Part shown: piece after piece, positions 1-48,145 of the stretch
How positions within the stretch are numbered: position 1 is the first letter of the stretch
Layout of the letters: each line of letters begins with the position of its first letter
Assembly: GCA_964016885.1 (NCBI GenBank)
Contig: OZ024740.1
Location: 313,410,001-313,474,000 of the forward strand
Direction of reading: 5' to 3'
Length of the DNA: 64,000 bases
Source of the DNA: Eledone cirrhosa
Lineage: Eukaryota
The notes under the pieces: model-generated
The model's database searches: none
Told to the model about the DNA's origin: nothing
What the model saw: the letters and a program-made list of their open reading frames with translations, nothing else
Translations under genes and position numbers: made by a program

Positions 1-400
1 GCTAAACCTGTAGATATTGTTCTCTATACAGTAACGGTAAAACTCACTTGTAATAATTCTTTACACACATCTCACTGTGTAACACACTTCTCTTTGTGTA
101 ATATATTTGTATTTGAGCTCAGAAGGAAATTCTCTATTCTTCTTTGAGCTAATACTATTATTATTATTACAGTGAACTGTGGAATACTCTTAATTCCGAT
201 CTTTGTATATATATATATATATATATATACTACGGCCTCGATATAAATACCCCCTCCGCCTCCGTGGTATTTTCTTCGGGGTTATAAGAGGCTTAGCTCT
301 GTTTCTCGACCGTTATATCGCGTGACTATCTCCCCCTCCGCCTTTTGGGATTCTTTCTCACGTCGTGTAGACGCGTTCTTGAGACTAGTAAAATGAGGTA

Positions 401-490
401 TCCTCTTGATAAGTCGGCAGACCTCGCAAGGACTCTATATCTTTATGATATATTGTTTTTGTTTATGCCACGAAACTACGTAGTCGAGGA
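401..490 (+). ncRNA. Type-I hammerhead ribozyme motif, U3-A8 core variant, long stem II, in cassette downstream of (TA)n
   Basis: TCCTC-TTGATAA-GT(C)GGCA...TGCCAC-GAAA-CTACGTAG-TC/GAGGA: stem I TCCTC:GAGGA, palindromic stem III, GUC cleavage triplet. Confidence 0.75.
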
Positions 491-762
491 ATTTAGGAGC
501 AGTTTAGGTATGATACATTTTATTACTAATTATATCTAAATGTTTCTTCTCTCCTCATAATGTATTTTTAACTCTGATACTGGTTCAGTCTAGTTCAACT
601 GAATTGGTCTGTCCCAGTCATTCATTGAGCAACATCGGTGAAGTTGGCACCCTTAACTCACAGTTGGGTGCGGATGCATTCATGTATATATGTGTGTGTC
701 CGCATGTATCTGTGTGTTTCTAAATATATTGTTATATATATATATATATATATATATATATA

Positions 763-960
763 CACGTGTCGGCTGAAAAATTCATAGGCTGACGAGGTTA
801 CTCTCATGAAATGACTAAATGAGGTTTATTTTTCAACATAGTCCCTGGGAAGAAACAATGCAGTTATTAATAAGAAGGGTTTAAATTAATACATGCAAGA
901 TTTCCCAGCTCTAGCATCACTCCTTCATAGTCACCCTTTAAACTTTTCAGCCGACATTTG
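763..960 (-). mobile_element. Mariner/Tc1-type MITE (~200 bp), diverged copy
   Basis: TIR-like ends GTCGGCTGAAAAATTCATAGGCTGAC / CTTTTCAGCCGAC, TA flanks; homologous to 14046-14243. Confidence 0.7.
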
Positions 961-43925: not shown

Positions 43926-44999
43926 ATGAGTGTAGTAGTGATACCAATGACGACTACAATTGTTTTGAAGGTAGCTGTGGTTGTAGCGGTGATAATGCTA
44001 ATACATCTGTTAAGTGAAGTGCTAGTGGTGGCTGTCGTTATGGGAGAGATGGTTCTAGTTTGGGCTTTATTTATAGAGATGGTTGTGGCTCTGGTATAGT
44101 GCCAATGATGATAGAAGTGGTATGGGAGTGAAGAATATCTTCAGAAACATGACTGAAACGTTTGATAGGTTTCGGATAATCCACTGGTATAATGGTTATT
44201 CTTTCTATACCAGGGTCTCCCAACATTGATGATATCGCCCATTGGCGGGCGATTTCAATTGTTCGTTGGGCGATGAGCAACTGAACAAAAAATAGTGGGC
44301 GATTCGAAATTTGGGTGAGCAATATAGGATTTTGAGTATAAAGAAGTTATTTCAACATATGCTAGCCGAAAAAGATATTCAAAGGAGATATGCAATAAAT
44401 TTGTAAAAAAAAACAACAAACAAATAAACAAAAACAAGAACAAAAACAAACAGGAGCTTACACAGGAATAACTGGGTCACATTCCTAGATAATATAAATA
44501 CAACCCCACAATGAACATTTTGGTATTTTCTAGAGTTTTGAGAAGGGTCATTGACATTCAAATAGTTCTTCGGACGAAATAACATTTAAAAAAATATAAA
44601 TCAGATAGGGAAAATCAAAAACAATTTTGCCAGTGCCAGTAAAATTAAAAAGTGACCCCAGGATAATCTCACCAATACCGCCATCACCGAGAGATCACAC
44701 ATAAATTTCACACAAGTGATGGCTTTTAAGAACTCTGACGACAAGGAGGCACGGATGGCAATATTAGACAAAATATGAGAATCCCAAGATGGGATCAGTT
44801 CACAGCTCAAAGCACATGCTCATACAAACAGACACCTACTTTAAGTTGTATTGTATTCTCGTAGTTGTGTTCTCGTAGTTGTTGATTATTGAAAATGGAC
44901 TTCGAGTAACAATATAACTTGTTGAACGAACATTTTGTTATTTATTGTTCCTACCATTTCCTTTGTGTATTGAACGGCTTTTAGACACTCCAATGTCTC

Positions 45000-45570
45000 C
45001 ATTTAAGAAAGATTGTCGTTAATATAGCATCGTTTACTTATCTTATGTGTTTATCGTTTCTCCTTAGCGCAGTCAATTAACTCAGTGTCTTATGTGCATC
45101 CAAACTTTAAGCAATGAAACCAACGAACCTTCACGCTTAAACCACCATTTATATTCTAAGCTGGCTGATCACAAGGAAAAGCCTTTGCCATATTTCTTAC
45201 AAATTAAAACCTCATTCGAAAAGCGAAAAACGTTGATCTCGGAATTTCAGAAAGCCAGGATAACACAGCATTACTGGTCGCAAATACCGATAAGTCTGAC
45301 ACTATAAGAGAAACATTACTTTGACCTGTTATTGAAGAAGCTATCTCGACTGTAATGCATAAAAAGCCTGACACAATTATCAAGACAATTCCACTTAGTA
45401 ATAACACAATTTCTCGACGTATAAATAAAATGGCCACCGACGTTAAGCATCAACTCATCTATAATCTCCAGAGTTATACATTTTCCATACAAGTTGATGA
45501 ATCAACAGTTGTGGGAAGTCAATGTTTGATGATGGTGTATGTTCATTTAAAAAAAATGAAAATGTGAAAT
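45000..45570 (+). pseudogene. hAT (Buster/Charlie, ZBED5/8-like) transposase remnant
   Basis: CLMCIQTLSNE..PSRL.HHL (BED finger-like) and IPLSNNTISRRI.KMA.DV...FSIQVDEST motifs, with frameshifts. Confidence 0.8.
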
Positions 45571-47596
45571 GCTGTTGATTGATCAATTGAGTACGTCTAT
45601 TATAGATTTATTGAAGCTATTTTTTAATGAGCATAATTTTGCTACTATATCTAAAAGTTTCTTAGTTGGCTAGTTGTTGTTGTTAATGTTGCTATTGTTT
45701 TCACACAGGTCAGTTTTGATCGAGGGGAACTTTACTGAAAGGCACCCCAGCCATGACAATTCCATTATCCAACAGGAGCCTTTTCTAGTAGAAGTAGTAG
45801 TAATAGTAATAGTAGTAATAGTATAAATAGTAGCAGAAGTAGTGGTAGTAGTAGTGGTAACAGTAGTAGTAGTAGAAGTAGTAGTAGTAGTAGCATTAGT
45901 AGTAGCAGCAGCAGCAGCAGCAGCAGCAGCAGCAGCAGTAGTAGTAGTAGTAGTAGTAGTAGTAGTAGTAGTAGTAGTAGTAGCATTAGTAGTAGCAGTA
46001 GTAGTAGTAGTAGTAGTAGTAGTAGTAGTAGTAGTAGAATTGCATTATAGGTTTAGCTTTTATGGTCACGAAAGCAATGGTGGAAGTCACAGGAGATTGT
46101 GAAATACTTATACACATGCATGCGCCTGCGCGTAGATATGCGCATGCGTGTTGCGTGTTTACAGCAAGTCGTAATAGTGATGGTGCTAACAGTTCTGACG
46201 CGTTGTTGCCATTGTTTATTATTGCTGTTAAATATATATATATATATATATACACACACACACACACACACACACACACACACACACACACACACACACA
46301 CACACACACACACACACACATATACATACATATAAATATATATATATATATATATATATATATTTATATATATATATATATCTGTGTGTATGTGTGAGTG
46401 TGTGCATATGTATATATGTATGCATATATGTATATATACATATATATATATATATATATATATATATATATATATACATATATGCATATATGTGTGTGTG
46501 TGTGTGTGTGTGTGTGTGCGCGCGTGTGTGCCTGTGTATATATTGTGTATATCATATGTGTGTCTGTGTGCGCGTGCGTGTGTGTGTGTACGTGTCTGTA
46601 TATATATATATATATATATATATATATATATATATATATATATATATATATACATATATATATACAGACACGTACACACACACGCACGCGCACACAGACA
46701 CACATATGATATACACAATATATACACAGGCACACACACACATATATGCATATATGTATATATATATATATATATATATATAAATATGTATATATACATA
46801 TATGCATACATATATACATATGCACACACTCACACATACACACAGACACACACACAAACAGCGACACACACACACACACACACACACACACACACACACA
46901 CACATATATATACACATATATATATACACATATATATATATATATATATAGGTTAGGGATCCTTGACCTCCGATCTCTTACAGTGAGCCTCACGTATACA
47001 GTCTTTCTTCCTCTCTCTTTTCTCCATTCTGTCTGGCTGACTGTCTTAATTGACTTCTCTCTTACTTCACACTTCAACCACTTGAGTGACATGTAGCTAA
47101 GGTGGAAGGAGTGTAGGTTGTAAGACTACTGGTATGTCACGTTTGGCTTGGGATGGGCTGGGTAGATGGCGAGATGTGTGTGGAGGTCGTATACTTTTAT
47201 TTATTGTATTGTAATGTTCCACATAACTAATGTTTTGATTTCATCATAATAAACAGATACACATATATACATGTGATAGATTCACAGAGAATATATGCAT
47301 GGTGTACATGCATTATGTACACACACACACACACACACACACACACACACACACACACACACACACACACACACACACACACACACACACACACACACAC
47401 ACACACACACACACACACACACATATATATATATATATATACACATATGTAAATATCAGATAGGGTGTGGTAAAAACCAGCTAGACCACAACCCACCAGG
47501 GTATTTGATATTTGAGGTAGTAGAGTGGGTAAAATGAAAAGATTCAGAACCCCGACGGCTGAGCTCCGGCCATTTCGACAGCTAGATTCGAACATG

Positions 47597-48145
47597 CAGG
47601 GTCATTCTACTTACATAGTTTAAAGAGGTTGTTTGCATAATTGCAAATGAATCGAATATTATTATTGATATTCGAAAAACTCAGATTTACATTTCATGTA
47701 GAGCGATAAAACTATTTGTTAGTTATTTCACTATGGCAAAGCCGGCCATTAATCGCTCGTATACATAAAACTTGACTGGCCTATCTGCTGATATGCAAAT
47801 CTGGCTGATCAGTGGGTCAGCTAATATGCAGATCTGACCGATGAAACAGTCTGCTAATATGCAAATCAGGTCGATCAGTCACTGTAAATATCATATATTT
47901 TCACTAGCTCTGATAGTTGTAAGGTAAGCAGTATACGGTACTAATGAAGGGTAATAACACAGAAACATTAGTGCCTACCGTTGGTTTATATGCCAACACA
48001 AGAGCAAGAATGACGGAGTCATTCTACTGACATGGCTTAAAGAGGATGTATGCATAGTTGCAGATGAATCGAAGATTATTATTAATATTCGAAAAACTCA
48101 GATTTACATTTCTTGTATTCAGCCAAGTAGAGTGATAAAACTATT
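47597..48145 (+). mobile_element. Non-coding ~420-bp unit, 1.3x tandem, with degenerate HHR and octamer repeats
   Basis: 47600-47715 is repeated at ~48017-48145 and at 7483-7625; HHR-like CGGTA-CTAATGA...GAAA-CATTAGTG-CC/TACCG at 47936-47980. Confidence 0.6.

Follow-up and report, generated by a model that had tools for sequence, protein, structure and literature searches.

Hammerhead-bearing cassettes in TA microsatellites of Eledone cirrhosa: ends of Penelope-like elements and non-coding units probably copied by their enzymes

Results

Hammerhead cassettes at the locus

We analysed a stretch of 64,000 nucleotides of the Eledone cirrhosa genome (NCBI GenBank assembly GCA_964016885.1, contig OZ024740.1, positions 313,410,001 to 313,474,000 of the forward strand), hereafter the window, whose positions are counted from its first letter. 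The window is rich in microsatellites overall and carries many short cassettes with predicted type-I hammerhead ribozymes, or their remnants, beside (TA)n tracts. These fall into thirteen families, A to M (Table 1). In the reading that we consider probable, the cassettes are 3′ ends of insertions of Penelope-like elements (PLEs) in (TA)n: five families would be coding elements, six would be non-coding units likely copied by PLE enzymes, and each family would carry a hammerhead predicted to cut RNA.

A first-pass annotation, made from the letters alone, had listed 14 hammerhead sites. Eight of these fit the fold; the remaining six belong to families that do fit but have decayed or been truncated in these copies. 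The strict descriptor defined below is passed by seven (401, 22832, 23304, 25122, 25271, 36961 and 38375), and 27069 passes once its family-wide CCGAAGA (U4C) core is allowed. Among the remainder, 22591 is mismatched at the base of stem II, 23038 (family core CAGAAGA) lost the 5′ strand of stem I at its 5′ truncation, 26808 has CAAA in place of GAAA, stem II is decayed at 27328 and 39229, and 47936 carries G5A and U16.1C. One further intact motif, 37979-38039 (match at 37986), was absent from that list. All 12 listed families and family J are multi-copy repeats, which excludes the objection that the cassettes are single-copy.

Hammerhead folds in the window and across the genome

Our descriptor required a CUGANGA or UUGANAA core, GAAA, NUH and at least four pairs in stem I. 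It matched the window at 9 places, where 100 local dinucleotide shuffles averaged 0.3 matches (maximum 2) and the reversed sequence had 0; an earlier, stricter version gave just 2. A genome sample of 100 spaced 10-kb stretches (1 Mb in total, from a genome of 3.0 Gb) held 124 matches, compared with 4–6 in five shuffles and 3 in the reversed sequence, a 25-fold excess. A palindromic loop III, which the descriptor does not require, is present in 69 of the 124 sample matches and in 0–1 of the shuffled ones. Four large chromosomes contributed 113 matches in 0.8 Mb and the others 11 in 0.2 Mb, with a bootstrap range on the total count of 90–166. Weighted by length and with chance matches subtracted, the genome is estimated to hold about 3×10^5 motifs (range 2–4×10^5). 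The density of the window is ordinary, since its 8 real motifs in 64 kb equal the sample average of 124 per Mb. The match at 19601, a singleton inside an unrelated repeat, was rejected as probable chance.

Sample and window matches together form 39 clusters, 21 of them multi-copy (at least 2 members), across which stems vary and cores are kept. Stem covariation was seen in both families tested: one stem I pair of family K appears as U-G, G-U or A-U, and two C-G pairs in stem II of family H are replaced by U-A in a compensatory manner. The covariation score was reached in 0 of 500 shuffles, a control that sequence relatedness inflates. We therefore consider the motifs confirmed as real type-I hammerhead folds, with predicted cleavage activity. 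The first-pass annotation had proposed hammerheads with a short or palindromic stem III in many families of differing stems and had asked for a shuffle control; core, stems, covariation, loops, clustering and shuffles all bear it out.

Rfam at gathering thresholds gave 0 matches in 144 kb rich in these motifs, and a scan by E-value gave just noise from microRNA-like hairpins among 150 of the 261 matches listed; this null does not count against the motifs. Permuted block orders (SGC, CSG, GCS; Eckert 2023) gave 0 matches in the window under a strict descriptor and 6 in 1 Mb against 1–3 in shuffles, where the strict descriptor may overlook forms with weak stems.

A directional association with TA tracts

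A (TA)6 or longer tract lies within 300 nt downstream of 91 of the 124 sample matches (null 19%), and within 300 nt upstream of 35% (null likewise 19%). Other tracts show little bias: CA/TG was found in 11 of 124 (null 7%) and GA/TC in 5 of 124 (null 3%). TA tracts are themselves dense (1,776 per Mb), and at least 195 of 723 TA clusters adjoin a hammerhead-family 3′ end known from another locus. The TA association that had been claimed from the window alone is thus genuine, and it is directional, on the downstream side. Around 31 insertions of family A, the median total of flanking TA is 68 nt, where a length-biased background gives 27, with one side scored 0 in six insertions. The longer flanks fit both duplication of the tract and a preference for long tracts.

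Coding families

Five of the 13 families (C, D, E, I and L) are assigned from their sequences to the 3′ ends of coding PLEs. In other copies they run upstream into open reading frames (ORFs) for reverse transcriptase (RT) and GIY-YIG, so that their window cassettes are best described as heavily 5′-truncated coding elements. The link to PLE RT/GIY-YIG that the first-pass annotation had drawn is thereby upheld for five families. Its description of the cassettes as non-autonomous is not: it holds for A, B, F, H, K and M but fails for these five. Families C, D and E first appeared non-coding, and their ORF link emerged with longer copies or other PLE queries; a non-autonomous family E was rejected once ORF-linked copies had been found.

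Families C, I and L are placed in the Hydra clade because their motifs match those in section 11 of Craig 2021 (PMC8557442), an assignment by motifs and structure rather than by placement in a reference-protein phylogeny; a homologue search returned 1,080 proteins and was unusable for clade assignment. [quoted passage not shown] All three families insert in (TA)n, carry the hammerhead near the 3′ end and form tandem and inverted structures. Pfam gave no match to the Hydra pieces or to whole Hydra ORFs. Families D and E appear to be Neptune/Nematis-type PLEs, a class given jointly for both names: the translations of L344 and L314 have a C-terminal GIY-YIG, a CX2-5CxxC linker and the CCHH cysteines, L344 has a GIY-YIG Pfam match, and ORF links were found in 3 copies of D and 9 of E.

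Intact Hydra ORFs lie outside the window, with 784 aa in family L and 713 aa in family C. Frames of intact length number about 44 of 142 matches in family L (at least 776 aa, counted by hand) and more than 20 of 111 in family C (713 aa). The ORF ends 1.1 kb (L) or 0.93 kb (C) before the hammerhead, which amounts to a 3′ untranslated region (UTR) of about 1 kb. The window tails are close to these ORF-bearing copies (97% for the L tail at 34675, 97.5% for C). Hydra-like coding sequence occupies 28.7 kb of the 1-Mb sample, in units of up to 3,531 bp. The PLE at 34880-37021, which had been suggested as the mobiliser, cannot fill that role because it is 5′-truncated and frame-broken; intact Hydra ORFs sit in other families. 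Among 67 scored relatives of this family I element, just the query itself spans the whole query without a stop, and the family appears largely decayed.

The core of family C is fixed as U4A (56 of 59 matches). A literature search for natural U4A cores returned nothing relevant, although Lunse et al. 2017, on dimeric PLE hammerheads, may describe U4 variants; a natural U4C core is reported in Perreault 2011 to lower hammerhead activity. Full-unit tandem arrays number five in the 142 matches of family L, which has a U3-A8 core, and the 111 matches of U4A family C include one pair, spaced below unit length. Fewer arrays in C would fit weak cleavage leading to fewer multi-unit copies, a comparison confounded by C being older. 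A further Hydra-like PLE (82% to L041) has left a decayed 3′ region at 25495-26220 on the minus strand. Its family may have a U4C hammerhead, with CCGAUGA, CAAUUG as the loop and a stem I of only 3 bp, which is broken in the window copy.

Non-coding families

Six of the 13 families (A, B, F, H, K and M) are, as judged from genomic copies, non-coding tandem units, i.e., putative retrozymes, and G and J are assigned to neither class. Truly non-autonomous retrozymes, as the first-pass annotation had envisaged, thus do appear to exist here. The clearest is family A, a 595-bp unit in head-to-tail arrays of up to 3.3 kb, with 40 of 40 scored copies (of 763 candidates) identical over 291 nt. None of its 32 copies with more than 600 nt of TA-free upstream sequence matches any PLE query there, and no sequence link was found between family A and any coding element compared. 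At 1–6 loci each, families B, F, H, K and M likewise form non-coding units whose end runs on into their start, with unit lengths of about 1.9 kb (B), 565–630 nt (F), 320 nt (H), 410–440 nt (K) and 400–440 nt (M); no PLE ORF was found for B and no ORF for F. In G and J, no ORF was present upstream in 4 and 6 long copies, respectively, and there is no clear unit length.

Assembled contigs of 4 sequencing runs from 3 studies cover family A, which is not evidence of expression, and the contig joint that goes back by 595 fits a tandem as well as a circle. Family A was also seen in runs X4 and X6, labelled organism B and organism C (shares of 0.59 and 0.57; contigs covering 26 and 28 of 30 bins).

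A shared insertion footprint

Each well-sampled family has two fixed 3′ ends downstream of the predicted cut: +80/+245 in A, +17/+97 in L, +25/+115 in C, +36/+103 in I, +55/+203 in B and +153/+213 in E. Three old family A copies (L146-L148) were split by the identity filter in this end count. Among 38 family A insertions, TA lies on both sides of 31 and on one side of 7. Twenty-two family A insertions are inverted, and 21 of these combine one short with one long end. The same pairing holds for 28 of 32 inverted insertions in L, 11 of 12 in E, 7 of 9 in C, 3 of 3 in B and 11 of 18 clear pairs in I; the 2 pairs of D show no clear pattern. The element continues as TAT or ATAT, a match of 3–6 nt to TA, at both ends of A and of L and at the long end of I. 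The target, the pair of ends and the inverted form are common to coding and non-coding families, from which we infer that PLE enzymes likely copy the non-coding units as well.

Read-through of the cut site and homogeneity of units

Copies read through the predicted cut site: just 2 real 5′ ends of 60 fall there, where about 1 is expected. Three apparent 5′ ends at the site were rejected as alignment splits at the monomer boundary, and none of ten extra loci, obtained by querying with sequence entirely 3′ of the cut, starts there. Since there is read-through and no pile-up of 5′ ends at the cut, the template would be a circle, a multimer left uncut, or a single unit that is read with jumps.

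Units of the same insertion resemble each other far more than units of different insertions do. In family L they differ by 0.07% within and 0.48% between insertions (5 loci, chosen for having several units), and in family A by 0.46% and 1.08% (16 loci), a difference reached in 0 of 2000 permutations. Variants private to one family A locus are common to all overlapping units in 11 cases, to some in 4 and limited to a single unit in 52. An inverted L insertion of 11.7 kb carries 9 variants in every covering piece of both arms, all absent from 10–29 other loci. Private variants common to the units of one insertion, even in a coding element, fit a circular-RNA template. Some variants alternate: 360A occurs in units 2 and 4 of a family A array (L297), and 843T in units 2 and 4 of a family L array (L290+L291). 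A two-unit circle read twice would give this alternation.

Features of the window

The hammerhead families are collected in Table 1.

Table 1. Hammerhead-family features of the window, with strand and condition
Feature	Position	Strand	Description
Family A	230..732	+	5′-truncated copy of the 595-bp non-coding tandem unit (putative retrozyme); long 3′ end
Family A hammerhead	401-490	+	Intact, with U3-A8 core and palindromic loop III; GUC cut predicted after 485
Further hammerhead-family tails	5718-5875, 7240-7630, 16740-16851, 22976-23013		Truncated within or 3′ of the ribozyme; mostly TA on both sides
Family L tail	11167..11309	-	Truncated within the ribozyme; 87% to ORF-bearing L element
Family B inverted insertion	22393..22943	both arms	Long end left, short end right
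Family B hammerheads	22832-22889; 22591-22648	+; -	Minus-strand copy with decayed stem II
Family C	23028..23199	+	Putative coding Hydra PLE 3′ end; core CAGAAGA (U4A) at 23038; stem I truncated
Family D	23266..23494	+	Putative Neptune/Nematis-type PLE 3′ end; intact minimal hammerhead 23304-23342
Family E inverted insertion	24911..25462	both arms	Putative Neptune/Nematis-type PLE 3′ end
Family E hammerheads	25271-25313; 25122-25164	+; -	
Family F	26632..26954	+	Old copy; hammerhead 26810-26897 carries G12C; GAAA in relatives
Family G	26978..27265	+	Hammerhead 27069-27188; family-wide U4C core; long stem II
Family H	27288..27532	+	Hammerhead 27329-27371 decayed; relatives intact, with compensatory stem II changes
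Family L tail	34675..34812	-	97% to intact 3,531-bp Hydra element; truncated within stem II
Family I	34883..37021	+	Dead, 5′-truncated PLE of putative Hydra clade; inverted 5′ arm 34883-35266
Family I hammerheads	36961-37001; near 34982-35022	+; -	Minus-strand copy decayed
Family J	37942..38074	+	Intact hammerhead 37979-38039
Family K	38252..38657	-	Putative non-coding unit; intact hammerhead 38374-38416; stem I covariation
Family L, older copy	39053..39337	+	Putative coding Hydra PLE 3′ end; short 3′ end
Family L older-copy hammerhead	39231-39324	+	U3-A8 core; stem II decayed
Diverged L-related tail	47441..47592	-	79% identity
Family M	47601..48145	+	Partial tandem; hammerhead near 47933-47982 inactivated (G5A, U16.1C); relatives canonical

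Other repeats share the window. An abundant one at 16950-17877 (about 14 per Mb) has an inverted end around a TA/CA tract, with no type-I hammerhead and no Rfam match; we take its head to resemble the 5′ ends of long interspersed elements (LINEs) of the RTE type, with their hepatitis delta virus (HDV)-like ribozymes. A LINE at 60171-63766 has endonuclease, RVT_1 and zf-RVT in long frames (395 and 708 aa) and ends in (TATC)n; fragments of it lie at 28467-29471 and 59538-60277, and it has about 12–16 copies per Mb. A short family with inverted ends (768-964, 14044-14242, 19588-19787, 39878-40196), presumably mariner-like, is the source of the chance match at 19601. A repeat resembling a short interspersed element, with 100–160 matches per Mb and no tie to TA tracts, covers 12809-15525, 18510-19114, 31704-32653, 42163-42390, 48335-48790, 50416-50578 and 57902-58143. 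Minisatellites occupy 15849-16541 (23 bp, 30 copies) and 13074-13297 (45 bp, 5 copies).

Discussion

A proposed route of copying

A route from a tandem locus to the cassettes can be proposed. The locus would be transcribed, and its hammerheads, mostly acting as dimers through the palindromic loop III, would cut the RNA to units that are likely circularised. Both strands of a (TA)n tract would then be nicked, presumably by the GIY-YIG endonuclease, in keeping with the observed target preference. Reverse transcription would begin at either of two fixed sites 15–250 nt downstream of the cut, and priming on both strands, at one short and one long site, would give the head-to-head inversions whose ends we observe. 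Copying would run back past the cut site and usually halt within a few hundred bases, leaving a ribozyme cassette. At times it may circle several times and leave a homogeneous array, in line with the read-through and homogeneity observed. Most copies would decay afterwards.

On this basis we advance, tentatively and with a little less than even confidence, that coding Hydra PLEs, and their non-coding parasites with them, are replicated by way of unit-length RNA circles that the hammerhead has cut, primed by a dimeric PLE enzyme on both (TA)n strands at two fixed sites. If true, the PLE hammerhead would thereby gain the in vivo role that it has so far lacked. Such a system would have left about 3×10^5 motifs, would adjoin at least a quarter of TA clusters and might lengthen them, and would tolerate U4A and U4C cores.

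Alternative explanations

Several observations weigh against a cut and circularised template, and some of them speak for copying of the same elements from an uncut linear tandem transcript, or from a linear unit with template jumps, the hammerhead being a passenger or serving another step. In the experiments of Frangieh 2024 (PMC11167929), hammerhead mutants of the Poseidon element PAc still inserted normally in vitro, uncut RNA was the main substrate and no RNA reads ended at the cut site; in the dataset of Li 2026 (bioRxiv 10.64898/2026.07.22.740005), 8 of 9 Xenopus retrozyme dimers showed no cleavage. U4A is fixed in family C, which is coding and rich in intact ORFs, so that strong cleavage may not be needed, and U4C is likewise fixed in family G. 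Few window motifs adopt the three-way junction in minimum-energy folds of the monomer. Uncut RNA would account equally well for read-through of the cut site, and mixed arrays exist: the variants of L292 occur in 2 of 3 units, the arms of L304 differ, and the alternating variants of L297 and L290/L291 can be counted here too. Homogeneous source arrays could mimic the pattern of private variants, and gene conversion or unequal crossover are further sources of array homogeneity. Comparing non-coding units with coding elements gave only neighbouring copies and weak short matches, which identify no mobiliser by sequence. Yet a dispensable hammerhead sits poorly with cores that are kept while stems change in the 21 multi-copy clusters and covary within families. 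Moreover, 5′-truncating copying of a linear template should only be able to shorten arrays, whereas several lineages have arrays of 4–5.5 units whose private variants extend over the whole array. We therefore regard a linear template as unlikely, though worth keeping in mind.

It is also conceivable that every cassette is a 5′-truncated coding PLE, a solo pseudo-long-terminal-repeat (pseudo-LTR) end, with no independent non-autonomous family. The history of C, D and E, which were ORF-linked after looking non-coding, speaks for this, as do G and J, assigned to neither class. For family A, however, it is refuted by the 595-bp arrays and by the 0 of 32 long upstream sequences that match a PLE, and the wrapped-round, non-coding units of B, F, H, K and M also speak against it; overall we find it highly improbable. 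That the motifs are chance matches in AT-rich repeats, linked to TA by the sheer density of such tracts, has in its favour a lenient descriptor with about 5 false matches per Mb and the 1,776 TA tracts per Mb. It is refuted by the shuffle comparison, and the palindromic loops, the covariation and a strand-specific downstream bias that CA and GA tracts lack make it negligible. We thus retain PLE insertion in (TA)n, of coding and non-coding units alike, as the probable origin of the cassettes.

Annotation is affected too, since Rfam misses these motifs, at about 124 per Mb, and Pfam misses the Hydra ORFs. That at least 195 of 723 TA clusters adjoin such ends matters for microsatellite markers in this genome.

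Comparison with known systems

Much of what we describe has parallels in the Hydra-clade section and supplement of Craig 2021 (PMC8557442). The elements there share RWK/RWR, DKT, CxCX5C, the lack of CCHH and the C-terminal GIY-YIG. They likewise insert in (TA)n and have an inverted 5′ arm, a tail confined to one end (a feature known for PLEs) and, near the 3′ end, a type-I hammerhead whose stem II has a U-U pair at its base and whose sites are NUU or NUA. An octopus element with (TA)n preference, Hydra-1_Obim, is in that supplement. The differences concern scale and cores. The published Hydra PLEs are few families, generally below 3 kb, whereas here 28.7 kb per Mb is coding and units reach 3,531 bp; tails are 60–170 nt here against 30–40 there, and 3′ UTRs are near 1 kb here. 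The Hydra rows examined in the supplement all have CUGA, unlike the U3-A8 core of L and the U4A core of C. The same paper calls it unclear why PLEs retain a hammerhead. In the Octopus vulgaris repeat annotation (PMC13282606), the text available has 0 occurrences of "hammerhead".

Animal non-LTR retrozymes (PMC7229834; bioRxiv 10.64898/2026.07.22.740005) are, like ours, AT-rich, non-coding tandem repeats in which every unit, several hundred bp long, has a single type-I hammerhead, and they co-occur with PLEs; a circular RNA intermediate and mobilisation by PLEs have been proposed for them. These papers draw the link to PLEs from co-occurrence and pseudo-LTR homology, compared with a shared insertion footprint here, and the main text of Cervera 2020 (PMC7229834) has 0 occurrences of "microsatellite" and "inverted". 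Axolotl has about 120,000 motifs in two families, the highest count among the papers compared, against an estimated 300,000 in dozens of families here. Expression and circles are demonstrated in those studies; the present retrozymes are described from genome sequence.

The minimal PLE hammerheads described in Cervera 2014 (PMC4209133) likewise include single motifs of truncated PLEs, opposite-strand pairs 100–700 bp apart, U3-A8 covariation, palindromic loop III and many families per genome. Circular RNA was proposed there as the template for copies longer than a unit, in genomes with 2,000–9,000 motifs; the private variants common to units of coding PLEs add what may be genomic support. The experiments on PAc (PMC11167929) resemble our footprint in that the tail is set by two internal RT starts lying downstream of the hammerhead, cutting and extension take place on both strands of the target, and targets are AT-rich. 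They differ in that the PAc starts are without target homology and the hammerhead is dispensable in vitro, whereas here both ends of A and L and the long end of I match TA over 3–6 nt, and in that inverted insertions here pair one short with one long end.

Literature searches for an earlier account led to the papers cited here. PLE hammerheads, Hydra (TA)n targeting and animal retrozymes were already known, and what is added here is scale and testability. Young, intact 3,531-bp Hydra arrays with private variants shared among units make the circular-template proposal of 2014 directly testable, and the young 595-bp retrozyme of family A, with the same two-end footprint, is a ready substrate for an assay of trans-mobilisation.

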